The notes under the pieces are model-generated. The model was given only the letters and a program-made list of their open reading frames with translations. It ran no database searches and was not told the origin of the DNA. A program made the position numbers and the translations under genes. Below, piece after piece: positions 22,560-49,928 of a stretch of DNA of 64,000 nucleotides. The stretch lies in NCBI GenBank assembly GCA_021513695.1, contig CP084166.1, positions 2,464,001 through 2,528,000 of the forward strand, written 5' to 3'. Position 1 is the first letter of the stretch. The number at the start of each line of letters is the position of its first letter. The DNA is from Candidatus Heimdallarchaeum aukensis. Its GTDB lineage: Archaea > Asgardarchaeota > Heimdallarchaeia > Heimdallarchaeales > Heimdallarchaeaceae.

Positions 22560-24212
22560 ATGCAATGCGAAATTATGCATAGAAATAGACAAATACAAAA
22601 ACTTCAGACAGAAATTTTTGATATTATCGTCATCGGTGGAGGGATAAATGGGTTAGGAGTAGCTCGTGATGCAGCTTTAAGAGGGTTAAAGGTTGCTTTA
22701 ATTGAAAAAGGAGATTTTGGTTCAGGAACAAGCTCAGCTAGTGCTAAGTTAATCCATGGAGGATTGAGATATTTAGAAACTTATCAGTTTAAAATAGTAT
22801 TAGAAAGTGTGAAAGAACGTAATATCCAATTAAAGGTCGCTCCTCATATAGTAAAACCTATTCATTTTGTTATTCCCACTTTTAAGGGTGATAGAGTAAA
22901 GAAATGGTTGATATTGTTAGGTTTATATGTTTATGACCTTTTTTCTATGTTTAAGAGACCTAGACATAAAAATCTAAGCAAAAAAAGGATTTTGGAACTA
23001 GTTCCATGGCTAAAAAAGGAAAAACTGAACGGTGGAGGGTTATATTGCGACGCTATAACCGATGATGCTAGATTGTGTTTGATTAATGCCCAAGCTGCTT
23101 ATGAAAATGGTGCAGTTATATTAAATTATATTCAAGCAAAGGACATAGTAAGAGAAAAGGATAATTGGTTGGTTTGTGCAAAAGATAAGATAGAAAATAA
23201 AGAAATAGAAATAAGAGGACGTACTGTTGTTTCTGTTGCTGGAGTATGGACAAAAAATCTTCTCTATAAAGAGGAAAAAGTACCAAGTATTTTATTTTCA
23301 AAAGGTTCACATTTGGTTTTTCCACAAAAATTCAAAGACTTTGGAATAACTTACAGTTATCAATCTAGAAAAGGAGGAGGATATATTATTCCATGGAAAA
23401 ATGTGACCCTTATAGGTACAACAGATAATATTTGTGACAATATTGAGGAAGCTAATCTAACACCAAAAGAAGATATTGAATTCCTTCATAAGGAAGTAAA
23501 CAGACTATGTGGTAAGAGTTCGTTCTTCGCTAAGGATCAAATACAAGCAACTTTTGCTGGAATAAGACCTCTCTTTATTGATAAAAAGGAGAAAGAAAAA
23601 GAGATAACTGATATATCTCGTGAATACAAAATTACAGAATTAGAAAAAGGGTTAATCGTTGTTATAGGTGGAAAACTCACTACATATAGATTACTCGCTA
23701 AAAAAGTAGTAGATAAAATAACAAAGAAACATTTGAAAATTAGAAGAAAATGTTTAACTCATAAAGCAAAGTTACCAGGGTCAGACGTGGAAAACTATGA
23801 AAAAGAAGAAAAAAGAATTCTTAAAGAATTAGAGTCAATGAATATAGAACCAATTTGCGCTTCACACTTAATAAACACGTACGGTACAAGAGTAGATAAA
23901 ATAATAGAAATAGCAAAAGAAAAACCATCTTTAAAGGATAGAATCTCACAAAATAAACCAATCATTAAGGCAGAAATAGAATATATGCTTGCTAATGAGT
24001 TTGTTGAAACACTAGAAGATATAATGATTAGACGTACATGGTTAAACCTTGAACAAGATCACGGTTTTGATTGTCTTGATTATATTTCCAATTGTTTAAG
24101 AAAAGAATACGAGAAAAAGCATTCAAAAGAAAAAGCTACAGAGATGATTAATCAGCAACTTATAAGCTATAAGGAATATATATCAAAAATGGAGAAAAGA
24201 ATAAATTATTGA
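22560..24212 (+). CDS. FAD-dependent glycerol-3-phosphate dehydrogenase (GlpA/GlpD family)
   Basis: N-terminal FDIIVIGGGINGLGVARDAALRGLKVALIEKGDFGSGTSSASAKLIHGGLRYLE is the DAO-family G3P dehydrogenase signature. The C-terminal region is consistent with DAO_C. Confidence 0.7.
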   Translation: MQCEIMHRNRQIQKLQTEIFDIIVIGGGINGLGVARDAALRGLKVALIEKGDFGSGTSSASAKLIHGGLRYLETYQFKIVLESVKERNIQLKVAPHIVKPIHFVIPTFKGDRVKKWLILLGLYVYDLFSMFKRPRHKNLSKKRILELVPWLKKEKLNGGGLYCDAITDDARLCLINAQAAYENGAVILNYIQAKDIVREKDNWLVCAKDKIENKEIEIRGRTVVSVAGVWTKNLLYKEEKVPSILFSKGSHLVFPQKFKDFGITYSYQSRKGGGYIIPWKNVTLIGTTDNICDNIEEANLTPKEDIEFLHKEVNRLCGKSSFFAKDQIQATFAGIRPLFIDKKEKEKEITDISREYKITELEKGLIVVIGGKLTTYRLLAKKVVDKITKKHLKIRRKCLTHKAKLPGSDVENYEKEEKRILKELESMNIEPICASHLINTYGTRVDKIIEIAKEKPSLKDRISQNKPIIKAEIEYMLANEFVETLEDIMIRRTWLNLEQDHGFDCLDYISNCLRKEYEKKHSKEKATEMINQQLISYKEYISKMEKRINY

Positions 24213-24355: not shown

Positions 24356-24901
24356 TTGATGAAAAAAGCAGTATATTTAACTAAGTTTGTATTTATAGTT
24401 TTAATTCTATCTTATTCAGCAATAATCACCTTTTCAGAAAATACAAATGAAAATGATTATTTCTTTTCTATAAACTTACTATCTCCTAATCCTTCTTGCT
24501 GTCCTAATGAATATGCCTACCAAATGGAAGAAGAATTACCAAAAATTGGTATTAATATTAGTCACCATGAATCAACCGGTTGGGGTAATATTATGCCCAG
24601 AACATGGGGTTATCCCGTTGGTGAAGAAGGTAAGTTTGATTATATACCCACCTATGAAGAAGGAGGATACGATATCCTCTTTGTAGGTTGGTGTTGGAAA
24701 CTAGATTGGGATCCAACAGGACTGTTTGATTCACCAAGTATAGTGCCGAACGGAGATAATGTATACCAATATAACAATCCTGAATTTGATACAAAGCTTG
24801 TTGAGTATACGACTGAACTAAATGATGAAGAACGTATTGAAAAAGCAAAAGAATTACAAGCTATTATTTATGAAGACCTGCCAGCTATAACCATGACTTA
24901 A
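24356..24901 (+). CDS. signal peptide plus C-terminal-lobe segment of an SBP_bac_5 solute-binding protein, truncated at an inversion junction
   Basis: - Signal peptide MMKKAVYLTKFVFIVLILSYSAIITFSE.
- IGINIS...DILFVGWCWKLDWDPTGLF...YNNPEFDTKLVE...KAKELQAIIYEDLPAI corresponds to the C-lobe and C-terminus of the family.
- It ends at LPAITMT*, about 30 aa short of the paralog at 19087..19676. Confidence 0.5.
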   Translation: MMKKAVYLTKFVFIVLILSYSAIITFSENTNENDYFFSINLLSPNPSCCPNEYAYQMEEELPKIGINISHHESTGWGNIMPRTWGYPVGEEGKFDYIPTYEEGGYDILFVGWCWKLDWDPTGLFDSPSIVPNGDNVYQYNNPEFDTKLVEYTTELNDEERIEKAKELQAIIYEDLPAITMT

Positions 24902-25417
24902 TGCACTTAAGGCGAAGCCATAAGGTTTTTTGAATTTAAATTCTACTGTATCATTATCTATCGCCTTAATTGAATCGTTATTTTCGAACAAGCTTGTTAG
25001 TTCTTTGTAAAATGGTGTGTTTAGCGCTTTTGTCATAAACAGTTCATACGTATAATCTACATCATAAGCTGTTACTTTATCCCCATTAGAGAAATAGGCG
25101 TTGGGATTAATATCTACTCTAATTACTTTCTTATCTTCGCTAATGGTGTAATTTTTAGCTATAACTGGTTCCATCAGATGAGTTTCCTGAGAACGTTCAA
25201 AAAGTCCATAATAGACACAATTCATCCATAGTTTATCATAATATGATTCTTGTATAAAAATGCTGTATTCTGTTAACTCTGCGGGGATAGTCCAACTAAT
25301 ATTATCTCCACCTATTTTTTCCCAATTTTCTGAACGATGAGCACTGTTAATTAATAAAGTAGGATCAATACCTTTGACACTCTTATTGCACAGATAAATT
25401 TCTTCGAAGTAAAGCAT
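24854..25417 (-). pseudogene. inverted segment encoding the N-terminal lobe of an SBP_bac_5 protein (no signal peptide)
   Basis: Minus-strand translation ...YYGLFERSQETHLMEPVIAKNYTISEDKKVIRVDINPNAYFSNGDKVTAYDVDYTYELF...TVEFKFKKPYGFA matches the SBP_bac_5 N-lobe, including the DG.x.TA.DV.ys.e motif. It lies between two plus-strand SBP_bac_5 pieces. Confidence 0.5.
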
Positions 25418-25516
25418 GGTATAATAAACAAAAAACTAGTAAGTCAATATATAGAAGAAAATGGATACAAACTTACAGTCCTAGATCAAGCTCTGGTAAC
25501 AAGCACAGGACCATAC

Positions 25517-26128
25517 ATGCTAAATGTTTCTGAGTTTAATACAAGTAAAAGTATAGTAACACTCAGACCAAATCCATATTGGTCTATTACAGAAAAAAAA
25601 CCAGTAAACAAACTAATATTCCAGTACATAAGTGGTAAAGATACAGCAATTAGTGCTTTAGCAAATGGTACAATAGATATAGTTGATTCAAGTTATTGCA
25701 CAAAAGAAACAGATTTTGAAAATGTAGAAGTGAATATCCTAATAGCTAAAAGTATGAATACAGAAGAAATGGCTATAAATATGAAACACCCAATAATAGG
25801 AACAGGAGAACTTACACCTCTAGGAACGGCAGAAGCAGCAAAAAAAATACGCCAAGCGATAAGTCATGCAGTACCAAGAGAAACACTAGTAGAAAAAATA
25901 TTTTATGGAACAGCTATCCCAGGAGTGACTCCAATGCCAGAAGGATGTATAGGTTTTGATTCGTCATTAGAACCCTTTACTTATGACATATATCTAGCTA
26001 TTCAACTAATTGAGGAAGCAGGATTTACAAGAAATATTACAACAGACACAACAGGAAATGCTACATTAATAGTAGTAACATTGATTTCTATTTGTTATGC
26101 TGTAATCTTAAAAAGGAAAAAGAAATAA
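25517..26128 (+). CDS. middle segment of an SBP_bac_5 protein with C-terminal TM anchor
   Basis: - TLRPNPYW...LIFQYISGKDTAISALANGTIDIV...AISHAVPRETLVEKIFYGTAIPG matches the central part of the family.
- The frame is actually open from 25358, and SBP homology starts near 25430 with KKLVSQYIEENGYKL.
- It ends in the TM anchor GNATLIVVTLISICYAVILKRKKK.
- It has no signal peptide and no C-lobe. Confidence 0.5.
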   Translation: MLNVSEFNTSKSIVTLRPNPYWSITEKKPVNKLIFQYISGKDTAISALANGTIDIVDSSYCTKETDFENVEVNILIAKSMNTEEMAINMKHPIIGTGELTPLGTAEAAKKIRQAISHAVPRETLVEKIFYGTAIPGVTPMPEGCIGFDSSLEPFTYDIYLAIQLIEEAGFTRNITTDTTGNATLIVVTLISICYAVILKRKKK

Positions 26129-27462: not shown

Positions 27463-28110
27463 TTAATTTGCAATTGTAAAGTATTTAGCAGCGAATCTGC
27501 CTGCATTTGTTAATTTAATAATATTATTTCTTCCTTCTTTTTTATTTTCAATGAGATTCTCTTTTTCAAGTTTATTTATATAATAACTTACAAGTTGAGG
27601 TCTTATATTCAGAACATCACTGATCTCTGAATTAGCTGAACAAATTTTTCCTCCTCTTTCAAGTATGAGTGTAAGTATTTTTTTGGCATTATCTTTTATG
27701 TCATCTAATTGGACTTTTGGAATGGGAAGCTTAATTATTCTATCACTTAATGGATCATTATTTTTTGGTTCTTTAATATAATAAATCTCTGAACCAGAAA
27801 AAAATCCTGCTATTACACCAGCTGATGACATGATTTTTGTACCTCCTGTAATGTTTATGTGGATTCTATTACCAATGTTCTTCTTGATAATACTAAGAAT
27901 TTTAACTACAACATCTTCTAAATCAAATTTATCAACTTCAACTAATGTACAATTAATAAATAGTTTTTCAGTTAGTGCTCTAATTGAATTAGCCTCTGTT
28001 TTTGATCCTTCATTGTAAAGAAGAAATATATCATCAATTTGATATGCATTTATTCCTTCAATTATTGGTTTTGGTGTCAATCCAACTGTCATAATATGTA
28101 CATTTCGCAT
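27463..28110 (-). CDS. Csa3-like transcriptional regulator: CARF (CRISPR-associated Rossmann fold) sensor domain plus C-terminal winged HTH
   Basis: N-terminal MTVGLTPKPIIEGI...HINITGGTKIMSSAGVIAG carries the CARF D/N-x-T-G-G-T-K signature. The C-terminal wHTH is SEISDVLNIRPQLVSYYINKLEKENLIE. It is divergent from the viperin gene. Confidence 0.7.
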   Translation of the reverse strand: MRNVHIMTVGLTPKPIIEGINAYQIDDIFLLYNEGSKTEANSIRALTEKLFINCTLVEVDKFDLEDVVVKILSIIKKNIGNRIHINITGGTKIMSSAGVIAGFFSGSEIYYIKEPKNNDPLSDRIIKLPIPKVQLDDIKDNAKKILTLILERGGKICSANSEISDVLNIRPQLVSYYINKLEKENLIENKKEGRNNIIKLTNAGRFAAKYFTIAN

Positions 28111-28119
28111 GATTTAGAT

Positions 28120-28216
28120 AATGAAAAAATATTTAAAAATATATGGTTGTATAATACAAAATTTTTTTTAATTATAAAAATAAAATTTTTAATATTGGGT
28201 TATTATAACATTATCT
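28120..28216. promoter_or_regulatory. divergent AT-rich promoter region between the CARF-wHTH regulator and viperin; TATA-like box aattataaaaataaaa about 40 bp upstream of the viperin ATG
   Basis: Sequence only. TTTAWA-type elements sit about 25-45 bp upstream of both divergent starts. No experimental support. Confidence 0.25.
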
Positions 28217-29095
28217 ATGAATTCCGGATTAATCGATAGGGAAACAATAAGAATGCAATCTCGTAAGTTAGTAAGTGTTAACTGGCATCTGTGGCCAAGA
28301 TGCATGAATAATTGTTCTTTTTGTTTTGGAAGATTTAATGAGATTAAAACGACCTTAAATAGAGAAAATGCGCTAAGAATTTTAAGAATCCTAGTAGATA
28401 GTGGAACTGAAAAAATTTCTTTTACAGGAGGAGAACCATTATTATGCCCTCATTTGGGAGAGTTGATAAAAGAAAGTCATAATTTAGGCTTAACAACAAT
28501 GTTGATAACAAGTGGTACAATTCTAAATACAAAATTTATTGAAGAACATCATAGGTATTTAGATTGGATCGCCTTGAGTGTTGATAGTTCAAATGAGCAT
28601 ATCCAAAAACAATTAGGAAGAGGAAACGGAAATCATGTTCACAAGATTAAAAAATTATCAAAAGATATACATTCCTATAATATCAATTTAAAAATTAATA
28701 CAGTAGTAACAAAACTTAACTGGAATGAGGACATGACTGAATTTATAGAAGAAATTGCCCCTGTTAGATGGAAAGTTTTTCAAGTCCTAAAGATTGTGGG
28801 ACAAAATGATGGTACAATAGATCAGTTGCTTATTTCTGAAGAAGAATTCAATGTTTTCGTTAAAACCCACAATCATCTGAAACCAGTAGTAGAATCTAAT
28901 AAAGATATGAAAGGCTCTTATATAATGTTAGATGCATTAGGTAGATTCTTTCAAAATTCTAATGGTTACTTACAATATAGTCAATCTATATTGGAAATTG
29001 ATCCAATAAAGGCTATTATACAGGTGGGTTGGGATTATAACAAATTTATAAAAAGAGGTGGATTATACAATTGGAATATAAAAGGGGGAGGTTAA
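28217..29095 (+). CDS. prokaryotic viperin (pVip), radical-SAM antiviral nucleotide-modifying enzyme
   Basis: - Radical-SAM motif CMNNCSFCFG, CxxxCxxC.
- Strong identity to the viperin core: SVNWHLWPRCMNNCSFCFGRF...ISFTGGEPLL, KINTVVTKLNWNEDMTEFIEEIAPVRWKVFQVLKI (compare NPVRWKVFQCL in human viperin), and C-terminal FIKRGGLYNW. Confidence 0.9.
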   Translation: MNSGLIDRETIRMQSRKLVSVNWHLWPRCMNNCSFCFGRFNEIKTTLNRENALRILRILVDSGTEKISFTGGEPLLCPHLGELIKESHNLGLTTMLITSGTILNTKFIEEHHRYLDWIALSVDSSNEHIQKQLGRGNGNHVHKIKKLSKDIHSYNINLKINTVVTKLNWNEDMTEFIEEIAPVRWKVFQVLKIVGQNDGTIDQLLISEEEFNVFVKTHNHLKPVVESNKDMKGSYIMLDALGRFFQNSNGYLQYSQSILEIDPIKAIIQVGWDYNKFIKRGGLYNWNIKGGG

Positions 29096-29101
29096 ATATC
29101 T

Positions 29102-31888
29102 ATGTCAGTTCTTTATTATGAAAACCTGGAGGAAAAATTACCCGAAAAAGTAGTAGAATCAATTATGTGGTCTACTTTGCACGGTATTAAACCTTATTTA
29201 GAGTTTATTGATAGAATTGTCCGTTCTGCTATTGAAGAAAGAATTAGTATAGAAATAGAAAAGTATGATATAACTGAATTAATTTTAGAAGAGACAGAAA
29301 TTAACAAAAATATAGATAAAATTAATGAAGAAGTTATTGCGGATTATAAAGTATTACTGAAAGAAAAGAGATTAAGTAGGCAATTAAGAAAAGTTATTAA
29401 ATTAGTTGAAAAAGGTGTTGGTGTCTTATATCGCTTTGTTGAACCAAATAATGATATGGAATTGGAAAATTATGACCTAATCAAAGAACGTTTTTTGGAT
29501 GCTGATAAAGTTTTTCCACACAGAAAACTTGAATATCAGCATACTATTCGTGTTTTAGATACTTATCCTCCTCTTGATTTACTTGTGTTAAAAAAGAAGG
29601 ATATTAAAAAAAGCAAGCAGAAAATGAGAATATACCAAAGAGCAAATCTTTATCAGTATGGTGTAATAAAAGAATCGCTGGAACAACTATTAAACAGACC
29701 TTTAAAGCACAATAGAAATTTAATAAGATTATTTGAAAATGTCAAACATGTCCGTTTTGGTGATGTAATTCCTCACAAAATAAAAGAAGATGAGTGGTTA
29801 TTTCTTACGGATAAAAATCGTGTAGGAAGCCAAGATCAAAGAAAATTTGTTCAAATTGCCTTGGGGACGCCTGATCTGGCAATATTAGAAGGGCCTCCAG
29901 GTTCAGGAAAAACTACAACTATTTGTGAATTAATTTATCAAGGATTAAGACGTGGTTTAAAAATTCTATTGGTTGCATCAACTCATGTGGCTGTAGATAA
30001 TGTTTTAGAAAAATTAATGGATGAAAATTCTCCTATCTATGATGAAATAAAAAAAGTAGTCTTACCTGTTCGAATTGGAAAAACAGATAGAATATCTGAT
30101 CTAGCTACCATGTATCAAGTAGACACCTACTGGGAATCTGAAAAGGAGAAATTAAAAGATAAATTGCGTAAATTAAAAAATAAAACAGAATCTCAAAAAA
30201 TGCTGTTAGATCTATTAGATGATAAGGAAAAAGGCACATCTGATTATATGAAAAGAGTTTTCATAAAAGCTGCTAATTTAGTATGTGGAACAACAATAGG
30301 TATTCTTCGACATCCTGAAATAGAAAAAAGAAAAAAAGATAGAAAAATTACATCTACGAAACCTTATGACCTTCTTATTTTAGATGAAGCTAGTAAAACA
30401 ACCTTTCAAGAGTTTATTGTACCTGCTTTGTTAGCTAAGAAATATATTATAGTTGGGGATATTAGACAATTACCTCCTTATGTTGATGAGGATGGTATAA
30501 TTAGTAATATCCCCTCGATAACAGATTTAGAAAGCAAATTTGCTACATTGATTCATAATCTTAAAGAAGCTCAGAAGCGCAATTTATTCCCTGTTAAATG
30601 TATATTACAAATAAGTAATGACCTAAAAGATAATGATTTAGAAATAATTGAAAAGTTTACGATTAATAATGTACCATTTTATTATCTAAAAAAAGAGAAG
30701 AAAGTAGACTTATACAAACTTATGGGTTCCTCTTTGTTAATAGGAACGAAAGAAAATTTACAAAAACAAGAATCTCTGTTACCTTTAGGAATAAATTGTG
30801 TGTGCGAAGGAAACTCCTCTGCATTAGTTCCATTAAATGAATCTAAGACATTTGTAGATTTTACAATTTGGAAGAGAAAACATAATGCGATTTCATCTTT
30901 GAGGCAACCAATAAACTTACGATTTTACAATGATGAATCTTTAACTGAAGCAATAGGCTGGCGCTTAATAAGGGATTTTGAATTAAGATATGTTGATAAT
31001 GATAGATATTGGAAACAAATAGAAACATTTATCCCAGAGTACTGGGATGAAAAAAGAAAGAGAGATTTTATTAACAGACTATTTCAAATAAAGAGGTTAG
31101 CTTTTCCATCGATAATTGAATTATTGCAAAAAGGTTTCCAAAGAAGCAAAAAACAAAAAGAATTAGATATCGGTTTGATTATAACTGATGGATTACCTAA
31201 AAAAATATTACAAGAACGCCATGTTATATTAAAATATCAACAAAGGATGCATCCTGAGATATCTGCATTTCCTAGAAACAATTTTTATAATAATGAAGCA
31301 CTCCGTGATCTGCCTGAAATTGAGAAAAACAGAGTTTTTGAATATCCAAATTATAAAAATAGAACAATCTGGGTAGATGTTCGGTTAAACAAAGAAGAAC
31401 AAAAAGAAATGAAAAAAAATATGAATAGAAATAAAAAAGAGGCTAAAGTAATTATTGATGAGCTAAAAGATTTACTTGATTGGATGTCTAAAAATAGGAA
31501 ACGTGATGGAAAACCATGGATTATAGCTATTCTTCCGTTTTATAAAGGTCAAGAAAAACTAATTAGAAAAAAACTTCAATCTTATTTTAAAAGTAAACGA
31601 GTAAGAACATTTTATTGTATAGAAAAAAATGCAATAGTTGAGCTTTGTGCTGTTGATAGGTTCCAAGGGCATGAAGCTGATATTATTTTTCTATCTTTTG
31701 TAAGGAATCGTAGCACTGGTATTGGTTTTTTGGATACTCCAAATAGACTTAATGTTGCGCTAACAAGAGCTAAATATCAGTTGGTGATAGTAGGAGACAA
31801 ACAATACTTCGAAAAATTTCAAAAGAGATCAGAAATCTTGCAAAAACTTGCAGAAGAAACACCTCTAAAAGCAAAGTATAGGATCTGA
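29102..31888 (+). CDS. UPF1-like SF1 helicase (AAA_11/AAA_12, COG1112 type) with a 250-aa N-terminal region of unknown function; Mokosh MkoA-like
   Basis: Walker A ILEGPPGSGKTTTICELIYQG. Motif LLVASTHVAVDNVLEKL. Walker B LLILDEASKT. The C-terminal AAA_12 signature is VDRFQGHEADIIFLSFVRN...LNVALTRAKYQLVIVGD. Its start is 6 nt after the viperin stop. Confidence 0.8.
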   Translation: MSVLYYENLEEKLPEKVVESIMWSTLHGIKPYLEFIDRIVRSAIEERISIEIEKYDITELILEETEINKNIDKINEEVIADYKVLLKEKRLSRQLRKVIKLVEKGVGVLYRFVEPNNDMELENYDLIKERFLDADKVFPHRKLEYQHTIRVLDTYPPLDLLVLKKKDIKKSKQKMRIYQRANLYQYGVIKESLEQLLNRPLKHNRNLIRLFENVKHVRFGDVIPHKIKEDEWLFLTDKNRVGSQDQRKFVQIALGTPDLAILEGPPGSGKTTTICELIYQGLRRGLKILLVASTHVAVDNVLEKLMDENSPIYDEIKKVVLPVRIGKTDRISDLATMYQVDTYWESEKEKLKDKLRKLKNKTESQKMLLDLLDDKEKGTSDYMKRVFIKAANLVCGTTIGILRHPEIEKRKKDRKITSTKPYDLLILDEASKTTFQEFIVPALLAKKYIIVGDIRQLPPYVDEDGIISNIPSITDLESKFATLIHNLKEAQKRNLFPVKCILQISNDLKDNDLEIIEKFTINNVPFYYLKKEKKVDLYKLMGSSLLIGTKENLQKQESLLPLGINCVCEGNSSALVPLNESKTFVDFTIWKRKHNAISSLRQPINLRFYNDESLTEAIGWRLIRDFELRYVDNDRYWKQIETFIPEYWDEKRKRDFINRLFQIKRLAFPSIIELLQKGFQRSKKQKELDIGLIITDGLPKKILQERHVILKYQQRMHPEISAFPRNNFYNNEALRDLPEIEKNRVFEYPNYKNRTIWVDVRLNKEEQKEMKKNMNRNKKEAKVIIDELKDLLDWMSKNRKRDGKPWIIAILPFYKGQEKLIRKKLQSYFKSKRVRTFYCIEKNAIVELCAVDRFQGHEADIIFLSFVRNRSTGIGFLDTPNRLNVALTRAKYQLVIVGDKQYFEKFQKRSEILQKLAEETPLKAKYRI

Positions 31889-31892
31889 AATT

Positions 31893-32993
31893 ATGAAAAT
31901 ACTATTAAGAAAAAAAATATCTATAGAATCGTATTGTGTGCAAATGAGCGTTTTTGTTAGCGAAGAACGACCAGAAATAATCCCACTATTAAAAGGAGTG
32001 GAAGAAGCTGAGAAAAAAAGTGTTGAAACTGCAACTTATTTTGAAGAAAAACTTTTTCCCGGATTTTCTATGAAATTTGTTGAAAATATACTGGAAGAGT
32101 TACGTCTACTAGGATTAGTTGATAATGGACATAAATTAACACAGAAAGGAATAGAAACAATAGAAGAAGAAGATGTTACTGTACCAGATGAAGGAACTTT
32201 TGAAATACACGTTGTTAATGATGTTCTAATACCACAAGTTATTATTGATATCAAACCCCTTGAACCAAATTTATCAAGTGAACTAGCCATAAAAAGAAAG
32301 CAAGGTAAACAATCAAAATTAGAGTTACCTGAATTAATCTTAAAAACAAAGGGAAGCACATTTAACATTTTTGACGACAAAAGGCGTAAAGTTACAATTC
32401 ACGAAATACAAAAAGTAGGTTTAAAAAATAAAAATAATGAAAAATTAGACGTTGAATTAGCATTTGACGAAAAAAAATGGACACTCAAAGTTACTTTTAA
32501 TAAAGAAAAGTTTGATCTGCACTTACCACAATGGTTTAATCAAACTGATGTTGTTGATAAAGTACTTACGTTATTCTCAGCAAAGGCTGATTTAAAACAA
32601 TGGAGGTTACCGCAAGATCCGACTAAGCTAGAAAAAAAAGAAATTACTAGTTTTAATAAAAATTTCCAAAAAGATAATGTAAAACTTTCTTCATTAGGCA
32701 AATTTAACATAGTTAGACTAATTGGCGTTCCCATTTTTCCGGATAGTCAAAAAAGTGCAGAAAAATGGTCAAAGAAATTATTTATTGAAAAAAAACTTTC
32801 TAATTATATGACAACAAAAGATTTTGAGACTGAATGGCGACAAATGATCAAAGAATATAGTGGAAAGTTTGATAAGTTTGACCTACCACCTCCAAAAATT
32901 ATGGATTTGTTAGATGAGATAACTTATGCTTCACAAAAATATTGGTTTCTGCAAGCACCATTAGATATGAATATTGAGGAGTTTGTCATATGA
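31893..32993 (+). CDS. hypothetical protein (366 aa), possible N-terminal winged-helix; operonic between the helicase and the PLD nuclease
   Basis: The start is 4 nt after the helicase stop, and the stop overlaps the PLD start (ATGA). ILEELRLLGLVDNGHKLTQKG is wH-like. Confidence 0.45.
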   Translation: MKILLRKKISIESYCVQMSVFVSEERPEIIPLLKGVEEAEKKSVETATYFEEKLFPGFSMKFVENILEELRLLGLVDNGHKLTQKGIETIEEEDVTVPDEGTFEIHVVNDVLIPQVIIDIKPLEPNLSSELAIKRKQGKQSKLELPELILKTKGSTFNIFDDKRRKVTIHEIQKVGLKNKNNEKLDVELAFDEKKWTLKVTFNKEKFDLHLPQWFNQTDVVDKVLTLFSAKADLKQWRLPQDPTKLEKKEITSFNKNFQKDNVKLSSLGKFNIVRLIGVPIFPDSQKSAEKWSKKLFIEKKLSNYMTTKDFETEWRQMIKEYSGKFDKFDLPPPKIMDLLDEITYASQKYWFLQAPLDMNIEEFVI

Positions 32994-34522
32994 TTAAACA
33001 AAAAGAACAGACTAACACTTATTTAAATGATAAAGAAGTTCCATCGCATTGGAGAAGTTTAATAAAAGAACAACCTGTTTTTAAAGATACCAACAAAATT
33101 ATTCCAATAGATAAAAAAAATAATCGATTTCGTACTCTTTTATTGAACTCTATAAAAAACGCAAAACAAACGATTATGATGTGTTCTTTTATTCTTAGTG
33201 ATCCTGATATTATTGATTCGTTATTAAAAGCTTCAGAAAGGGGGGTTAGGTGTTATCTATTATTTTCTACAGAAGCTCAATTGTCAAAGGAATATAAAAA
33301 AGAACAATCAGAGTTTGATGAAAAGACCCTAGAAGAACATAAGCAGATGTTAGATAGACTTGCTGGAAAAATTTTAGCTAGAACGTGTGATCATTTACAT
33401 GCTAAATTTTTGTTAGTCGATTATGGCAATCCAGAACAGAAGGGTTTCATTTCAACTGCGAATTTTACAAAAGAAGCGCTTACAAGAAATCAGGAACTAG
33501 GTGTAATTCTTAGTGATTCTGAAATAAATTTTCTATTTAATTTCTTTGTATTAGGTTTTTGGGTCGAAAGTAAAAATGAACTAGTAAGAAAAAATAATTG
33601 GGACGCTGTTAAATTAATTAATCTTAAACCACTAAAAGGAAATAATCAAATTTTTTATACTACTAGTTCCAACCAAACCCTAAAAAACGAATTAGAAAAA
33701 ATAATCGAGAATGAAACAAAAGAATTAGTGGTCTCAAGTTATGGGTTTGATGATGAACATCCTATTGTAGAGTTACTAATAAATAAAGCACAAAATATTA
33801 ACTTGACCATAATTACAAGACCAAGAGAAAAAAATCATAAAGTCATAGAAAAATTTACAAATGCTGGAGCAAAGGTTGTTGCTTATGATTATCTACATGC
33901 AAAGTTTATTCTTTCGCCTTCAACAAATCAAGGAATAATTATGACTGCAAATTTAGAGAGTAAAGGTCTAGAAACTGGTTATGAGGTTGGTATTAAAATT
34001 ACAAGAAAATATTTTGATGAACTGTTAACAATCTCAAGAGTCTGGATCGATTCTGCACCATTAATTTGGTATAATAAGACTTCTATTAAAAATTTGGAAC
34101 CTGGTACAATCAAAATTCCTAAAGGGAAGGATTATGATACCATAGAAATTATTGATGAGTTTATAGATGAGCAAAAGATAGAGCCACAAGATTTGCATAA
34201 AATGGAGAAGTTATTAAAAGAAGAACCTAAATTAAAGAAAAATCTGGATAACAAACTTCCAAAAAAGATTATTGTTAAGAGAACAATTATTCCTCCAGTA
34301 CTTCCAAAGGATGCAGTAAAAGTAGAGTCTAAGCAACTATTTACTAGTAAGAAAAGTAGAAGAAGAGAAGCTGACGTAAAAGATAAGGAAATAAAGTTTC
34401 CCTTTGAAACTTATCGTTTAAAGAATATATATTATGTTGTTGTTAAGTCATTAAAAGATTTAGAAAAACTTAAGGAATTCCCTAAATTTAGACAAACTGT
34501 ACGTATTGTAACTAAAGGCTAA
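32990..34522 (+). CDS. phospholipase-D-family nuclease with two HKD motifs; Mokosh MkoB-like
   Basis: HKD motif 1 is DHLHAKFLLVDYGNPEQKGFISTANFT. HKD motif 2 is YLHAKFILSPSTNQGIIMTANLESKG. Confidence 0.75.
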   Translation: MIKQKEQTNTYLNDKEVPSHWRSLIKEQPVFKDTNKIIPIDKKNNRFRTLLLNSIKNAKQTIMMCSFILSDPDIIDSLLKASERGVRCYLLFSTEAQLSKEYKKEQSEFDEKTLEEHKQMLDRLAGKILARTCDHLHAKFLLVDYGNPEQKGFISTANFTKEALTRNQELGVILSDSEINFLFNFFVLGFWVESKNELVRKNNWDAVKLINLKPLKGNNQIFYTTSSNQTLKNELEKIIENETKELVVSSYGFDDEHPIVELLINKAQNINLTIITRPREKNHKVIEKFTNAGAKVVAYDYLHAKFILSPSTNQGIIMTANLESKGLETGYEVGIKITRKYFDELLTISRVWIDSAPLIWYNKTSIKNLEPGTIKIPKGKDYDTIEIIDEFIDEQKIEPQDLHKMEKLLKEEPKLKKNLDNKLPKKIIVKRTIIPPVLPKDAVKVESKQLFTSKKSRRREADVKDKEIKFPFETYRLKNIYYVVVKSLKDLEKLKEFPKFRQTVRIVTKG

Positions 34523-34568
34523 AACTGCAACTCAATAGATTTATAAATTGTAAAATGGAGCTAAAAAA

Positions 34569-35108
34569 GTGTCATACGATTTACTATATATTTCATTAAT
34601 GGGCTCATCAGAAAAAGCTGTAGCAAATTCAATATATGCTTCTTTAAAGAATTTAGTTAAAACTGATAAGAAAAATTGGGTTCTGGTGTTTGCAAAATCT
34701 AAATCAACACCAATAAATGGAGAAAGAATTGTTGAAATATTAGATGAGTATAAAAACACTTATACTAAAGCTAAATGGTACAACGCTCCTGTTGATTTTG
34801 ATGAGTTTGAAATTGAAGAATCCAACCTTCTTAAATCAATGGAACAGATAATAAATTATGTGGAAGAAACAGAAAAGAACTACTCTGACATCTTTATAGA
34901 TATAACACCAGGTAGAAAAGTAATGTCTGTTGCAGCCACTCTAGCCGCAATAAATCTCTGTAAATCATCAGAGTTCAATGATATCAAAATAATATACTAT
35001 TTGTTGAAAAATGTTGATGAACATAAAGATAAAGACGCACCTGAACTATATCCTGATGAGTACAAAGTGTCGAGTTGGTCTGTTAAAGATATAAGTAAAA
35101 GAATTTAG
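34569..35108 (+). CDS. standalone CARF-domain protein (179 aa)
   Basis: Core IFIDITPGRKVMSVAATLAAI is parallel to the Csa3-like HINITGGTKIMSSAGVIAG (the D/N-I-T-x-G-x-K signature). The N-terminal beta strand is LLYISLMGSS. There is no fused effector. Confidence 0.5.
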   Translation: MSYDLLYISLMGSSEKAVANSIYASLKNLVKTDKKNWVLVFAKSKSTPINGERIVEILDEYKNTYTKAKWYNAPVDFDEFEIEESNLLKSMEQIINYVEETEKNYSDIFIDITPGRKVMSVAATLAAINLCKSSEFNDIKIIYYLLKNVDEHKDKDAPELYPDEYKVSSWSVKDISKRI

Positions 35109-35118
35109 AGGAAAAAGA

Positions 35119-36219
35119 ATGTCTGAAAAGCCAGTAATTTTGGAGTTTAGTGAGTTTTTTGAGAGTTATTTGTCAGAAAAACCTTTCATTATTCGAGGTT
35201 GGGATGAAGATGAGAATCAAGAATTTAGAATTGAATATAATGAAGGTATTACAACATTTGATAAAAATTTAAAACCCTTAGATATAAAGAATTATCTCTT
35301 TAATATTGGTATCTTCCCTTCTGATGAAAAATGGTGGAGAGAAAAAGCATTTAAAAAATTGGAAAAACGATATAATGAAGCAATTGAAGAAGAAGAGGTT
35401 CCTGCTCTGGGTTTAGATACAAATATAATAATAAATGGCGTTTTTATCAACAGGTTAAGAGGATTATTAAAAAGGAAACTTAAATGGGAAAATCCTCTCC
35501 TTCTACTGTCTCTTGCTTCATCTCACGAGCTTCACTATGGAGCAGAATCAAAATATAATGACTCGTTTTATAACAAATCAAAATTGGACAATATATGGGA
35601 ATTTATTTTATCACTAGATTCTCAAACACAGGAACTAGCTAAGACTGTTTTTGGCACCTATAAACCTATAGAAAACAAAAACATTTTGAGTTCTTTACAT
35701 TGTAAAAGAGGAAGAATAGGGCTTATAGGTTCATATAACTATTATAAACATAAGAAACTACCAAATACTCTCATCATAAAATCGATTCATCCTTATAATG
35801 TTGCAAAGTTTGATTCAGATGGGCATAAATATAAAGGAATTGATGCAATTTACGACACTTTAATTGCTTATGAGTTCACTCAGTTTATGACCTTTACAAA
35901 TACAAAAGTAACGATTTTAACAATGGATAATTCTTTAGCAAGTTTATTACAAAATGCATCAGTGGATGTAGTTTATATACCACCTCCAAGTAAATTTCAA
36001 TTACCAAAAGAAATAATTATCCCTCAAAGAAATTGTTCTATCCTTCTGAGAGAACTATTAGTAAGATCTCCTTTTATCGTTATTGAGGATGAAAATAAAA
36101 AAATAGTATTATCAATGATTTGGATAGGACAAACAGATGAAGAAAAAGCAAAAGGAGTAATTCATGGAGTAGTGAAAGAAAAAAATAAAACTAGATATTT
36201 ATTAATAAAGAGCCAATAA
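35119..36219 (+). CDS. hypothetical protein with a possible PIN-like nuclease core
   Basis: ALGLDTNIIING is a PIN first-strand h-h-D-T-N-h-h motif. SSHELHY gives the downstream acidic residue and ILTMDNSLASLL the last (T-x-D). The spacing is longer than in a canonical PIN domain. Confidence 0.35.
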   Translation: MSEKPVILEFSEFFESYLSEKPFIIRGWDEDENQEFRIEYNEGITTFDKNLKPLDIKNYLFNIGIFPSDEKWWREKAFKKLEKRYNEAIEEEEVPALGLDTNIIINGVFINRLRGLLKRKLKWENPLLLLSLASSHELHYGAESKYNDSFYNKSKLDNIWEFILSLDSQTQELAKTVFGTYKPIENKNILSSLHCKRGRIGLIGSYNYYKHKKLPNTLIIKSIHPYNVAKFDSDGHKYKGIDAIYDTLIAYEFTQFMTFTNTKVTILTMDNSLASLLQNASVDVVYIPPPSKFQLPKEIIIPQRNCSILLRELLVRSPFIVIEDENKKIVLSMIWIGQTDEEKAKGVIHGVVKEKNKTRYLLIKSQ

Positions 36220-36305: not shown

Positions 36306-37127
36306 GTGAAAAACACTTTTACTGTTATGGAAAATTGCTCTCTTTCTTCTAAAGATATGATTAAATTATACCTAGAAGTTGAAAAGGTTGCACGGTTTTA
36401 TGGAAAAATAAGACTTGTAGTCAATGATAAATTAAAGGCTGATCTTAAGGGAGAAGAGAAGACGAATTGTGGGCAGTTTCCTGCAAATAGTAAAAAGTTC
36501 CAAAAGTATTGGGGACTATTTAAAGAATTAAATATGAATACAAAGAAAATAAACAAATCCTATAAAACAATTAGTATTCCTAAAGAAGAATATAATAATT
36601 TAAAGAATAACAATAATAAATTAAAATATCAACGTTTTAATGTTCTTCGAGACTATTTTGCAATAAAAAGAATTCAAACTCTTCCACCAGAAAAAAAAGA
36701 ACAAATAATAATTACACTAGGATATAGAGATATCTTGCCACCAAACGTAGAAATGAAAACTTCAAATGAAAACCTAATCAAAATAATTGAAAATACAGAA
36801 GATTATTTAATTTATTTTAATTTGGAATCAGAGTTTGCGTTTCGTATGATATTTAGACATTTTTTGTGTTCGTTTTTGTTTAATGAACTTAACCTTTTTC
36901 CTGATAAAGAGATTCATATTTTAAAAAGAAATAGTTTGAAAAGCAAAAATAAGAATAATAAAGCTATTTCTAATCGTCTAATTATTTATAAGAGTGACAA
37001 GAAAAACTTTGAACTTATTTCAGAAACTACTTATCAAAACTTATTGAAACTTGTGGATGATACACAACTACACCAAAAACTTATGAAAATTCATTTAGAT
37101 TTTGAAAGAAATAAAGAAGGAATATAG
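36306..37127 (+). CDS. hypothetical protein (273 aa)
   Basis: ORF with protein-like composition and no recognisable motif. Confidence 0.4.
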   Translation: MKNTFTVMENCSLSSKDMIKLYLEVEKVARFYGKIRLVVNDKLKADLKGEEKTNCGQFPANSKKFQKYWGLFKELNMNTKKINKSYKTISIPKEEYNNLKNNNNKLKYQRFNVLRDYFAIKRIQTLPPEKKEQIIITLGYRDILPPNVEMKTSNENLIKIIENTEDYLIYFNLESEFAFRMIFRHFLCSFLFNELNLFPDKEIHILKRNSLKSKNKNNKAISNRLIIYKSDKKNFELISETTYQNLLKLVDDTQLHQKLMKIHLDFERNKEGI

Positions 37128-37172: not shown

Positions 37173-37949
37173 TTAATAATCATTAATGCAAATATCTTTG
37201 ATTTTAAAATTCTCTTTGCCTTCTTTAATTGGATACAAAAACCACCAACGCTTTGACAGCTCTTTTTCAGATATATTCTCTATGAGATTCGAAATAAAGT
37301 AAGAAAATGACAAGTTCTCTATTTTGTAGATAGAATACACATCATTAAGTTTGTCTTGCATTTCTCTTTCTAGCCATAATTTAATAAATAGATTTTCACC
37401 CATGCAAATATGATTTACAAACCCTTGACTATTTTTTAATGCTGCAATAATGTGTCCTTGAATTAATCCTTCATTTAAACTATTAGATCCACTATAAGCG
37501 AAAATTCCATTAAACTTGCTTTTTCCAATTATTTTTCCATTAAAAGACGCATTATCCATAATTTCTTTAATGTTGCTATTGTTTACTTTTGTTTTGACTT
37601 CAATGATACCTTTAACATTATCTGGTGTTGTAATTACAAAATCTCCTTCTACAAATAACGCTGGATATGTATTATCGTATAGAATTATATCTATTTGTTT
37701 TGATATTTCAGTTCCGAAATTCTCACAATTATGTTTATAATTAATTATGAATCCTGTTCCTATGCTTATGTTAGAAGGCAAAAAACGTTTAATAACATTT
37801 TTTAATATAGCTTCCTTAAATCTTCCTTCTTCTCCCCAGTGTCTATTTCCTATAAGATTTCTTACTCTATTTTGAACAATTTTCAACTCTCTTGTAATAG
37901 AACTATGAAATTCTTTAGGGTTTATATCCCATCTATTCCTCTGATTCAT
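37173..37949 (-). CDS. hypothetical protein with a putative PD-(D/E)xK (restriction-endonuclease-fold) core
   Basis: QIDIILYDNTYPALFVEGDFVITTPDNVKGIIEVKTK follows the hhhD...hhE-h-K pattern. It lies downstream, on the same strand, of the helicase operon, but is separated from it by an IS6 insertion. Confidence 0.4.
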   Translation of the reverse strand: MNQRNRWDINPKEFHSSITRELKIVQNRVRNLIGNRHWGEEGRFKEAILKNVIKRFLPSNISIGTGFIINYKHNCENFGTEISKQIDIILYDNTYPALFVEGDFVITTPDNVKGIIEVKTKVNNSNIKEIMDNASFNGKIIGKSKFNGIFAYSGSNSLNEGLIQGHIIAALKNSQGFVNHICMGENLFIKLWLEREMQDKLNDVYSIYKIENLSFSYFISNLIENISEKELSKRWWFLYPIKEGKENFKIKDICINDY

Positions 37950-38346: not shown

Positions 38347-39109
38347 GGTAGTGTCTAGTTTTTTTCCGACAAAAATATTTGTGGGGACTCTAATAGTAAG
38401 ATATGAAAACACAAAAACTATCTGCTCTTTTTAAGAGATGCAGAGTCCCCAAAAAAATAATAATAAAAGCTATTTATGAATATATTGGTTCAAAGAATGG
38501 TTTGAGGACAGTAGCATGGAAGAATGGTTTAACGCATCAAACATTATTGTATTGGGTAAAGAAGTTCAGGCTCTTTAGGGAAAGTTTACATAGAGTTGTA
38601 GCAGAGAGAGGGGGAATACCAGAGATTATAGTAGTAGATGAAACAGAGATTAGGACCTCTCAAGGCTCAATATATCTGTGGTTCGCGTTAGATCCTTACA
38701 ACAAGACTTTACTGGGTTTTAGTATTACTAAAGGACGGAGTAATCTTGAATGTTTACTAACTTTCCGTTATTGGCTCAAATGTTGGGGTTTTAAGCCTCG
38801 TATTGTCGTTACAGATGCAGGGGTATGGTATCCTGTCTTACTTCGTCTAGGTATCAAAATCTCCGTTATCAAAGGTGGTTTACGCTCCTATATTGAACGT
38901 TTTAATGCTACTCTTAAGAGTTATCGTTGGTTTCATTCTATTCTCCACTGCACTTGTCCTATCCGTGCCGTCTATGGCTCTACTCATCTTTCTGGTTTTC
39001 TTACTCTCTTTATGCTCCATTATAATTTCGTTCGTCCTCATCAGAGCTTGGGACATCCTCCCCTTAGTTCCTTTTTACCTAGGAGGTGGTATAAAAACTA
39101 GACACTACC
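38347..39109 (+). mobile_element. IS6-family insertion sequence (763 bp), copy 1, with 17-bp terminal inverted repeats and a 9-bp direct repeat
   Basis: Inverted repeats GGTAGTGTCTAGTTTTT at 38347 and AAAAACTAGACACTACC ending at 39109. It is flanked on both sides by ATATAAAGC, which looks like a target-site duplication. Confidence 0.85.
38403..39101 (+). CDS. IS6-family DDE transposase (232 aa)
   Basis: DDE triad in IIVVDETEI, RIVVTDAGVWYP and YIERFNATLK. Overall similarity to IS26-type transposases. Confidence 0.85.
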   Translation: MKTQKLSALFKRCRVPKKIIIKAIYEYIGSKNGLRTVAWKNGLTHQTLLYWVKKFRLFRESLHRVVAERGGIPEIIVVDETEIRTSQGSIYLWFALDPYNKTLLGFSITKGRSNLECLLTFRYWLKCWGFKPRIVVTDAGVWYPVLLRLGIKISVIKGGLRSYIERFNATLKSYRWFHSILHCTCPIRAVYGSTHLSGFLTLFMLHYNFVRPHQSLGHPPLSSFLPRRWYKN

Positions 39110-45994: not shown

Positions 45995-46610
45995 ACAGAA
46001 GAATTCAGCTTGACTAATAGTCATCTGTTTCTTCTAAACAAATATAATTAAACAACTCAAATCCTTTTTCAGTTAAATTGTTGTTTGTTACCAGCTCTAA
46101 AGACAAAAGAAGATTCAGTAAATCAACAATTGCCTTTTGATTTAAAAAAGAATATTTTCTATGTAATTCAAGAAATAATCTTTTGTATATTTTTGCTTTG
46201 AGTATTTAGTGAGATTTTTGAAAATAAATAGCTAATAATATTTTATACTCTTCTAGATTGATACTAGCTGGAGAAAAAATTTGTAATGAACTTGTATAAA
46301 GATAATTCAATAGCTGTTCATTTTTGATTTTTATTTGATTCTTTTTTTCTATTTTCAAAAGCATTCTATTTTTGTAATTAAGAAAATTATACAAAAACAA
46401 AAGGAAATTTATGATATATGGTTAACTTTTTCCACCGAACTTCTACTTATAAAATATACCAGATAATTATCGTTCACAATAACATTAATGAAAATTTTAT
46501 CCTCTTACAAAAATTTGCTAAAATCTTTTTACAAAAATATTTTAAGGTATCACTGTATGTTTTTCTCATCTCTTTAATGTGTGGGAAAGAAATAGGGTAT
46601 ATAGAAAACC

Positions 46611-47372: not shown

Positions 47373-47423
47373 ATAGAAAACCATTAGAAAAAATTTTAAT
47401 ATGATAACGTAGGAAGAAAAGAA

Positions 47424-48245: not shown

Positions 48246-48317
48246 GATCTGTGTATGTTGTTTGATATATGTGTAGTCTAAGTTTAGATATTGAACAGAC
48301 TTCTTTTTGATTATTCT

Positions 48318-49919: not shown

Positions 49920-49928
49920 TTTCCTTCC

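Follow-up and report, generated by a model that had tools for sequence, protein, structure and literature searches.

The window analysed here is a 64-kb stretch (64,000 nucleotides; positions 2,464,001 to 2,528,000 of contig CP084166.1) from the genome of Candidatus Heimdallarchaeum aukensis, which was closed by Wu et al. 2022 (PMC8813620). It carries two genes for proteins with CARF domains, termed CARF1 and CARF2 below, which flank a viperin gene, a helicase gene and a PLD nuclease gene, the second CARF gene being followed by a gene for a PIN nuclease. Region 27463-36219 is best read as one defence module in three layers: a core of helicase, adaptor (UNK) and PLD nuclease, the regulator CARF1, and the pair formed by CARF2 and the PIN protein. 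An earlier first-pass annotation of the sequence had called both CARF genes orphans, a label that was wrong, as both are conserved parts of a recurrent module of viperin and helicase-adaptor-PLD genes. Judged from sequence, a regulator and an RNase that respond to a cyclic oligonucleotide would be attached to the viperin/helicase-PLD operon, with the signal made elsewhere; we lean towards this reading with modest confidence.

The genes of the module and those directly behind it are given below (wHTH, winged helix-turn-helix; SF1, superfamily 1; ORF, open reading frame).

27463-28110, minus strand: CARF1, 215 aa; CARF plus winged helix, Csa3-like
28217-29095, plus strand: viperin (radical SAM), AsgVip01
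29102-31888, plus strand: UPF1/DNA2-like SF1 helicase (HEL), 928 aa; first gene of the trio
31893-32993, plus strand: UNK adaptor, 366 aa, N-terminal wHTH-like region; second gene of the trio
32990-34522, plus strand: tandem-PLD nuclease, 510 aa, two HxK motifs; third gene of the trio
34569-35108, plus strand: CARF2, 179 aa, GTG start; CARF only
35119-36219, plus strand: PIN-domain nuclease, 366 aa; extra domains N- and C-terminal of PIN
36306-37127, plus strand: ORF at the operon end, 273 aa; no family match in Pfam or PADLOC
37173-37949, minus strand: NucC-like PD-(D/E)xK nuclease (DUF6602), 258 aa; convergent with the operon

The plus-strand genes from viperin to PIN are spaced by -4 to 46 nt, the start of the PLD gene overlapping the adaptor gene by 4 nt, and this spacing fits a single operon divergent from CARF1. 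Both CARF ORFs were confirmed at the coordinates of the first-pass annotation.

CARF1 and its candidate operator

CARF1 has a CARF domain at approximately residues 4-117 and a winged helix at approximately residues 140-210. Pfam matches above the gathering threshold (given in brackets) were obtained with four Rossmann-like families, HFX_2341_N at 64.4 bits (30), CARF_Card1 at 32.0 (24.6), Csa3_N at 30.5 (27) and Cas_APE2256 at 27.1 (24.8), three of which bear CARF or CRISPR-associated names, and with the wHTH family DUF6293_C at 31.7 (27). The PADLOC model CARF3 was matched over its full length with an E value of 3.4e-55. Sequence matches in the PDB were to CARF proteins only, down to an E value of 0.03, and these were followed by the wHTH regulator PH1932 and Csm6. 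These data bear out the first-pass description of a Csa3-like protein consisting of CARF and wHTH. The superfamily signature [DN]x[ST]xxx[RK] following strand 4 and, following strand 1, a loop of small residues were located in CARF1 and CARF2 alike, and the stricter motif [DN]-I-T-x-G-x-K, which had been noted in both proteins, is indeed present as HINITGGTKIMS in CARF1 (NITGGTK) and as FIDITPGRKVMS in CARF2 (DITPGRK). Across the CARF1 family, N86, G89 and G90 do not vary.

The closest described counterparts of CARF1 are Csa3a and Csa3b of the Sulfolobales, with which it shares the CARF and winged-helix domains, the motif [DN]xTxGxK, a match to Pfam Csa3_N above threshold and to PADLOC Csa3/CasR, and a position facing a palindromic candidate operator at a divergent promoter. 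It differs in falling slightly under the cut-off of NCBIfam Csa3 (TIGR01884; 55.1 bits against 60.2), the CARF and wHTH architecture being present, and in having HFX_2341_N as its best Pfam family. It also has no cas neighbours, and faces viperin, helicase-PLD and CARF-PIN genes instead of genes for CRISPR adaptation or interference. Binding of cyclic tetra-adenylate (cA4) by Csa3 (Csa3a) is described in PMC8699464. Orthologues of CARF1 adjoin the helicase trio in eight other archaeal loci. CARF1 is therefore predicted to function as a Csa3-like, ligand-gated transcription factor divergent from the operon.

The 106-bp intergenic region between CARF1 and viperin was aligned with its counterparts in two related loci (loci are denoted by L numbers), L010, whose CARF1 is 53% identical to that of the window, and L012. 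The window and L010 share ATATTTAAAAA, the perfect palindrome TTGTATAATACAA and TATAAAA, which were located as follows.

28129-28139: AT-rich TATA-like box ATATTTAAAAA, kept in L010; candidate CARF1 promoter element, read on the minus strand
28147-28159: 13-bp perfect palindrome TTGTAT-A-ATACAA, identical in L010; candidate operator of dimeric CARF1
28173-28179, plus strand: TATAAAA, shared by the window with L010 and L012; candidate TATA box for the viperin operon, approximately 40 nt ahead of the ATG

The palindrome occurs once in the 64 kb. L012 carries a different perfect palindrome, TTTTATGATAAAA (TTTTAT-G-ATAAAA), at the same aligned position, and loci in which the regulator has the helix-turn-helix (HTH) domain before CARF have duplicated palindromes of their own. 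A palindrome that is kept, or that co-varies, at one aligned position supports a dimeric regulator bound between divergent promoters, and 28147-28159 is accordingly put forward as a candidate CARF1 operator. The elements at 28129-28139 and 28173-28179 are candidate promoter elements in a very AT-rich region. In the mechanism that we propose, a CARF1 dimer would sit on the 13-bp palindrome between the divergent promoters, and a ligand on its CARF domain would alter transcription of the operon from viperin to PIN; ligand-dependent transcription of this kind would mean that costly effectors are produced only upon infection.

The helicase-adaptor-PLD trio and its regulators

The helicase matched Pfam AAA_11 and AAA_12, and PADLOC MkoA with an E value of 5.4e-89 across profile positions 460-835 of 1112 only; its identity to orthologues in other Asgard loci is approximately 50%. 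The PLD nuclease, 47% identical to its orthologues, matched Pfam PLDc_2 in two stretches (2.6e-27), PADLOC DrmC (3e-27) and PADLOC MkoB (2.8e-9). UNK gave no match in Pfam, PADLOC or NCBIfam. An alignment of 71 UNK sequences keeps structural residues plus R26 and D358 only, which argues that UNK is not an enzyme, and the protein agrees with what PMC11090510 describes as the 'elongated wHTH' partner of CnuH-type helicases.

A scan with the helicase alignment, using one genome per species, yielded 80 related loci, and these were screened with our own family models and for arrays only. The order helicase-UNK-PLD was found in nearly all 80. Comparative genomics thus shows that the helicase-adaptor-PLD trio, of the Mokosh/CnuH-CnuE kind, is widespread across bacteria and archaea. 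No full match of the trio to any named PADLOC or NCBIfam system was found, and the bacterial orthologues gave the same partial Mokosh matches as the window. The UPF1-like SF1 helicase and the PLD nuclease are shared with type I Mokosh (MkoA and MkoB), from which the trio differs in that the MkoA and MkoB matches are partial and that there are three genes, not two, the adaptor being extra. CnuH-CnuE operons similarly have a UPF1-like helicase followed by an elongated-wHTH partner that carries a nuclease, PLD included (PMC11090510). However, only this CnuH/CnuE-like part of a CoCoNuT is present: there are no McrB-like (CnuB) or McrC-like (CnuC) genes adjacent, and the module is therefore not a CoCoNuT. 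The additions of viperin and of CARF-PIN have not been described for either Mokosh or CnuH-CnuE.

The trio is also accompanied by a regulator. A gene for an RtcR_PspF1 protein (CARF-AAA-HTH) lies directly after PLD in 49 of the 54 bacterial loci with room for one, as detected with our own hidden Markov model (HMM), and in none of the archaeal loci. All ten of the bacterial post-PLD regulators that were tested matched PADLOC PDLC01994 (RtcR_PspF1) over the full length, with E values down to 5.8e-212, and a Sigma54_activat domain was present in 27 of 44 downstream neighbours of the bacterial trio. Every archaeal trio locus with upstream flank adjoins a CARF gene, which nearly always encodes a CARF+HTH protein. 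RtcR_PspF1, reportedly defined in the 2020 CARF census, occupies the same position as CARF1, both being transcription factors with a CARF domain that go with the helicase-adaptor-PLD operon. CARF1 differs in that Pfam detects no sigma-54 AAA+ domain in it, which sets it outside the RtcR family, and it comes from another CARF family; it is therefore an analogue of RtcR_PspF1, not an orthologue. RtcR-type CARF regulators have been noted for some CnuH systems (PMC11090510). The suggestion that the CARF domain of RtcR_PspF1 is the same as that of the CARF2 family was not supported, as the hhalign E value of 0.44 was not significant; the N-terminus of RtcR_PspF1 gave no match in the PDB. A widespread trio is thus nearly always found with a CARF-domain regulator, of families that differ between bacteria and archaea, and this points to a signal controlling the trio.

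CARF2 and PIN form a split CARF-PIN effector

The assignment of CARF2 is weaker than that of CARF1, but consistent. The ORF agrees with an independent gene call on a Logan contig, and G12, T113, G115, R116 and K117 are invariant in the family. All CARF matches in Pfam fell below the gathering score, with E values of 1.8e-4 to 2e-3 (22.0 bits against 27, 21.8 against 23). The best PADLOC match was the uncurated CARF_m1 (3e-10), followed by the CARF part of CARF_m1--CARF_PIN (7.1e-9), a model which we take to represent the CARF-PIN family of the CARF census of Makarova 2020. A profile of CARF2 and seven relatives, searched against the PDB, found the ring nuclease Sso2081 (2.9e-6) and the CARF-PIN protein SiRe_0806 (1.3e-5). 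An AlphaFold2 model of CARF2, made from two sequences (pLDDT, the score of the predicted local distance difference test, 66.7), was compared by Foldseek; the first 19 matches, among them Card1, Sso2081, SiRe_0806, Can2 and Cdn1, were all CARF proteins, and generic Rossmann folds appeared from rank 20 on. CARF2 as a generic Rossmann fold was rejected on this ranking. The first-pass annotation had proposed a CARF-only protein at 34569-35108, which holds on the PADLOC and Foldseek matches with Pfam below thresholds, and it had named generic Rossmann folds in profile searches as the outcome that would overturn its CARF assignments; this does not apply to either protein.

CARF2 lies immediately upstream of a PIN gene wherever the sequence reaches that far, often overlapping it, in more than 10 diverged loci. 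In the window the two are separate ORFs in different frames with a 10-nt gap, and so are not the one-polypeptide CARF-PIN. Both halves are nevertheless homologous to the CARF-PIN family, as represented by CARF_m1--CARF_PIN and SiRe_0806, and the protein of 35119-36219 has the PIN fold with four conserved acidic residues of a PIN-domain nuclease. The PIN protein of the window itself gave no match to the PADLOC model CARF_m1--CARF_PIN. In two loci of Promethearchaeota, L048 and L057, one of two adjacent genes corresponds to the CARF half of this model (8.6e-28) and the other to its PIN half (6.7e-23 and 3.1e-22), and these two-gene matches tie the pair of the window to the fused family. A frameshifted CARF-PIN fusion was considered and rejected, as the two-gene form is kept in more than 10 diverged loci.

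CARF2 and PIN are, by family, a split CARF-PIN effector, of which the activity is predicted from sequence. A ligand-bound CARF2 would activate the PIN RNase as an abortive or dormancy-type back-up. The first-pass suggestion that CARF2, placed between a PLD nuclease and a PIN-like protein, is a sensor for a separate effector holds for PIN; PLD is not its partner and belongs to the helicase trio. The solved example of the family is SiRe_0806, a Sulfolobus islandicus CARF-PIN protein that was crystallised together with cA4 (PDB 9jxw/9jxx) and on which no publication was found in the literature searched. The pair in the window differs from it in consisting of two genes, a split kept in more than 10 loci, in having an identity of 14-20%, and in having the helicase-PLD/viperin operon as its genomic partner.

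CARF2 might alternatively be mainly a stand-alone ring nuclease, like Crn1 or Csx14, that resets the signal and does not activate PIN, which we consider decidedly unlikely. It is CARF-only and similar in length to Crn1 (179 against 178 aa), Crn1 Sso2081 is the best PDB match of the family profile over the whole domain, and NCBIfam gave Csx14 at 4.2e-8 and Crn1 (NF040581) at 6.7e-5. S14 and K117 of CARF2 align with S11 and K106 of Sso2081, presumably its catalytic residues. The NCBIfam scores are, however, far under their cut-offs (33.5 against 90.35 bits and 22.7 against 125), the best PADLOC model, CARF_m1, belongs to the CARF-PIN family, and the serine position varies across the CARF2 family (T, N or A). 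There is no type III locus nearby, and the invariable pairing of CARF2 with a PIN gene directly downstream likewise argues against such a main role. Csx14 is assigned to the Crn1 family in PMC12409355. One role does not preclude the other, and a CARF2 that acts as the sensor of PIN could also have Crn1-like ring-nuclease activity.

Conservation of the module in related loci

Homologues of the PIN protein led to Asgard contigs (Promethearchaeota, Hodarchaeota and Hermodarchaeota) in which the same families are clustered in differing order; orthology was confirmed by BLAST and with our own HMMs. In a second locus type, comprising L004-L008 and L093, PLD, UNK, helicase and viperin genes lie on one strand (PLD<-UNK<-HEL<-viperin) and the genes for an HTH-CARF protein of 225 aa, CARF2 (191-194 aa) and PIN on the other (->HTH-CARF->CARF2->PIN). 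Identity to the proteins of the window is 47% for viperin, 50% for helicase, 35-40% for UNK, 47% for PLD, 23-26% for CARF2 and 23% for PIN. The 225-aa regulator has its HTH before its CARF domain, the reverse of CARF1, matches PADLOC CARF_m5 (6e-19) and is not a CARF1 orthologue, so that a regulator joining CARF with DNA binding has been kept while its family was replaced. The same displacement recurs more widely, with CARF3 in the window, CARF_m5 in the second locus type, another Csa3-like protein in L048 and L057, and RtcR_PspF1 in bacteria. Neither the ORF at 36306-37127 nor the NucC-like gene at 37173-37949 is part of this pattern, as the former has no homologue in the related loci and the latter is absent from the related archaeal loci. 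Further variants of the module were found in L010-L012, L048, L057, L081 and L087, and are listed together with L014 and L028.

L010 and L011: CARF-wHTH gene facing the viperin and trio genes
L012: CARF-wHTH gene facing the viperin and trio genes, plus CARF2 and a divergent PIN-like gene (hhalign 9.6e-7)
L014 (Thermoplasmata) and L028 (Thaumarchaeota): CARF-wHTH gene inside the operon, no viperin
L081 (Bathyarchaeia): viperin and CARF-wHTH genes facing the trio
L087: CARF-wHTH gene plus a CARF-only gene
L048 and L057 (Promethearchaeota): Csa3-like regulator, 284-aa CARF_m1 protein and 373-aa protein in front of the trio

These arrangements bear on whether the genes were brought together by chance in a defence island, or whether the CARF genes are relics of a lost CRISPR locus or of a lost cyclic oligonucleotide-based antiphage signalling system (CBASS) locus. 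The window is a dense defence island, with PbeA-like, HerA, HNH, DpdA-like, DUF262-like and NucC-like genes; it has an ORF resembling an insertion sequence (IS)-type transposase at 38403-39101; and the CARF2-PIN cassette is mobile, having been found in other contexts. Chance juxtaposition is very unlikely all the same, as at least eight arrangements of the same families occur in Heimdall-, Hod-, Hermod- and Promethearchaeota, Bathyarchaeia, Thermoplasmata and Thaumarchaeota with protein identities of 23-50%, the regulator has been displaced by non-orthologous ones, the spacing is tight and the motifs are intact.

Two further genes were seen beside related loci. A NYN-domain gene lies directly after the PIN gene of the related module in L006 (11086-11565), and a ThsB-type TIR gene is located approximately 10 kb from the related module in L004 (20689-21047).

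The viperin gene

The viperin gene (28217-29095) matched PADLOC pVip with an E value of 1.5e-85 and NCBIfam viperin_w_prok at 286.1 bits (cut-off 180), and its sequence is identical to AsgVip01 (GCA_021513695; supplement of bioRxiv 10.1101/2023.09.13.557418). AsgVip01 protects E. coli from T7 and yields several 3'-deoxy-3',4'-didehydro (ddh)-nucleotides (Shomar et al., bioRxiv 10.1101/2023.09.13.557418). The viperin of the window is thus a bona fide, experimentally tested pVip. It differs in its setting, as the literature searched treats pVips as single genes or as kinase- or TPR-associated, and does not describe for them an operon with a CARF regulator, helicase-PLD and CARF-PIN; searches of the literature for viperin and CARF together gave reviews only. 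A union of viperin with the helicase-adaptor-PLD system is also found in Candidatus Parabeggiatoa communis (L036, 5661-14226), where a viperin-like radical SAM gene stands between adaptor and PLD in a helicase-adaptor-PLD-RtcR_PspF1 operon, and this union is an independent one.

A molecule derived from viperin, either a ddh-nucleotide or 5'-deoxyadenosine, could in principle be the CARF ligand, with viperin as the signal source. Viperin is the sole nucleotide-modifying enzyme of the module, and it has joined the trio in at least three ways, upstream of the helicase in Asgard archaea, beyond CARF1 in L081 and between adaptor and PLD in L036. This source is extremely improbable, given that CARF regulators or CARF-PIN accompany the trio with no viperin in L014, L028, L048, L057 and L087, and that AsgVip01 works alone in E. 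coli. The known ligands of CARF domains are oligoadenylates or RNA ends, which argues the same way.

Ligand and source of the signal

The CARF2-PIN pair was also found outside the module. L094 encodes the nearest relative of the PIN protein (35% identity), with a CARF2 homologue upstream. Its PIN gene is followed by the gene for a 318-aa protein with SMODS and OAS1_C domains (Pfam), of which the best PDB match is CdnC, a cGAS/DncV-like nucleotidyltransferase (CD-NTase), at 2.4e-14, and then by a gene whose product has a weak E2-like match; visual inspection also suggests the beginning of a ThiF-type Rossmann motif in it. The layout resembles type II CBASS. In this stretch (Logan SRR31660269, 1-3784) the split CARF-PIN thus stands beside a CdnC-like CD-NTase in place of SAVED or another usual effector; with a guanine-cytosine content of 30% the sequence is probably from a related archaeon. 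In L099 the pair lies near genes for Cas1, Cas2, a NYN protein, ThiF and JAB, in L096 it adjoins an HTH-CARF regulator, and in L090, another metagenome-assembled Heimdall genome, it follows an unrelated 495-aa gene. These four settings characterize the pair as a mobile effector cassette of the cyclic-oligonucleotide type. The nearest solved relatives of CARF2, and likewise those of both halves of the pair, bind cA4.

The window was searched for a source of such a signal. No interspaced or tandem CRISPR array was detected in the 64 kb, and PADLOC identified no Cas10, CD-NTase, cas effector or adaptation gene among all ORFs of at least 240 aa, shorter ORFs being covered in part, with the exception of 22560-24212, which was left out of the scans and reads as an FAD-dependent glycerol-3-phosphate dehydrogenase. 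The first-pass annotation had made the same observation, which stands within this range. The CARF genes are thus not placed as ancillary genes belonging to a CRISPR locus of type III, cas10, cas effector genes and array all being undetected in the 64 kb, nor does the pair share an operon with a CD-NTase as a CBASS effector would, an arrangement found only in the relative L094. A signal synthase hidden in UNK or in the N-terminal 240 aa of the helicase was rejected, as no catalytic-type residues are conserved (alignments of 71 and 19 sequences, respectively).

With no synthase detected in the module or the rest of the 64 kb, this enzyme would lie elsewhere, and the ligand would be made by a type III CRISPR Cas10 or by a CD-NTase; the source genome does have CRISPR-Cas loci elsewhere (PMC8813620). 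The ligand is most likely a cyclic oligoadenylate such as cyclic triadenylate (cA3) or cA4, and CARF2 would pass the ligand of CARF1, or a related one, to the PIN RNase. The earlier proposal had left two possibilities, a signal supplied in trans or a different ligand. For CARF2 a cyclic oligonucleotide acting in trans is the most economical choice, in view of L094, L099 and the cA4-binding relatives. For CARF1 a ligand other than a cyclic oligoadenylate is a serious possibility, because the bacterial trio carries an RtcR-type CARF regulator that is not CRISPR-linked.

Several observations weigh against a cyclic oligonucleotide made elsewhere. Besides the lack of a Cas10 or CD-NTase in the PADLOC scans of the window, neither was present among the Pfam-annotated genes of L004-L008 and L093, and none of the archaeal loci has a CRISPR-like array at a distance of 10 kb or less from the module. 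For the CRISPR-Cas loci of the source genome, the types appear in figures alone (PMC8813620), and a signalling-competent type III system among them is a possibility only. The ligand of the RtcR CARF domain is a tRNA half with a 2',3'-cyclic phosphate, not a cyclic oligoadenylate (PMC7790460), and since the bacterial counterparts use an RtcR-type CARF the signal for the regulator could be RNA damage. In addition, CARF2 is equally similar to the ring nuclease Crn1 and to CARF-PIN sensors, the pLDDT of its model is only 66.7, and the palindrome at 28147-28159 sits in very AT-rich DNA.

The main rival to a signal from elsewhere is a module that is autonomous and cyclase-free, following RtcR-like logic with a ligand that is not a cyclase product. 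In bacteria and archaea alike the trio is linked with a CARF transcription factor, RtcR_PspF1 in 49 of 54 bacterial loci; no array or cyclase was seen near the module loci; and for CnuH helicase systems linked to RtcR the same logic was put forward in the CoCoNuT study (PMC11090510). This alternative appears somewhat unlikely nonetheless: CARF1 is Csa3- and CARF3-like with no RtcR among its top PADLOC matches, the hhalign comparison of the RtcR_PspF1 CARF domain with the CARF2 family was not significant, and relatives of CARF2-PIN adjoin CD-NTase or CRISPR genes. PLD and PIN nucleases, moreover, leave 3'-OH ends and are not known to leave a cyclic phosphate. A related proposal, in which the seven-gene module is self-contained and cyclase-free and its CARF factor and CARF-PIN would answer a ligand that the module itself makes from viral nucleic acid, whether RNA ends or oligonucleotides from helicase-PLD or a viperin-derived nucleotide, is unlikely. 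We retain as our preferred interpretation a cyclic-oligonucleotide signal that would be made elsewhere in the genome.

Other genes in the window

The gene at 37173-37949 matched Pfam DUF6602 (1.5e-19) and the PADLOC models for CAS-associated PD_DExK (1.1e-23) and NucC (1e-10), and its best PDB match was NucC at 3.1e-4. NucC nucleases are activated by cA3, which CdnC-type enzymes produce. This NucC-like protein is, from its sequence matches, possibly a third protein near the module that responds to cyclic oligoadenylates.

Just upstream of the module are three ORF fragments, 24356-24901 (plus strand), 24854-25417 (minus strand) and 25517-26128 (plus strand), the latter two with Pfam SBP_bac_5 and the first assigned by eye. 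Together (24356-26128) they look like a disrupted substrate-binding-protein gene of which the middle piece has been inverted. Downstream, a 232-aa ORF at 38403-39101 (plus strand), transposase- or integrase-like on reading the sequence and with no match in PADLOC, separates the module from the next defence genes; many multiplied transposase families have been reported for the source genome (PMC8813620). It is followed on the minus strand (39409-44403) by what is probably another defence system, made up of a PbeA-like helicase (PADLOC 8.5e-62), a 273-aa ORF and a 564-aa protein that matches the N-terminal part of PDC-M16A. Region 44801-55458 contains more genes of defence type, namely an HNH protein (PtuB/PDC-M01B-like), PDC-M34B, a HerA ATPase (4.3e-56) with two partners that have no assignment, and a 1224-aa protein with a weak LmuB/SMC-like match. 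Region 57283-63990 encodes a DpdA-like transglycosylase (2.3e-8), a 714-aa protein whose N-terminus matches the PDC-M55C, HEC-05 and SspE models (putatively DUF262/GmrSD-like) and, at 62500-63990, a 496-aa fusion of a Cas4-like PD-(D/E)xK domain with a UvrD-type C-terminus, which does not make this a cas locus. At the other end of the window, the 1288-aa ORF at 5018-8884 contains a 276-nt tandem repeat (8222-8743; 1.9 copies, 89% identical), which fits the intragenic tandem repeats reported for the source genome.

A conserved union of known parts and its meaning

Each part of the module is of a known kind: the Csa3-like regulator, the CARF-PIN effector, pVip and the Mokosh/CnuHE-like helicase-PLD. 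No description was found in the literature searched, which did not include the 2020 CARF census, of the cross-domain pattern of trio and CARF regulator, nor, in the literature searched, of the conserved union of these parts in Asgard archaea or of the two-gene form of CARF-PIN. The bacterial neighbourhood of RtcR_PspF1, helicase and PLD may already be described in that census.

AsgVip01 is among the few Asgard immune proteins that have been tested experimentally, and it serves as an argument for an origin of eukaryotic viperin in archaeal immunity. The data presented here place this validated Asgard viperin as the first gene of a conserved operon, which is apparently switched by a nucleotide-sensing transcription factor. 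This suggests that viperin expression in Asgard archaea is induced by a signal, in parallel to its induction by interferon. The module also provides a defined setting for how CARF signalling couples innate systems with one another, or with CRISPR or CBASS loci elsewhere in the genome.

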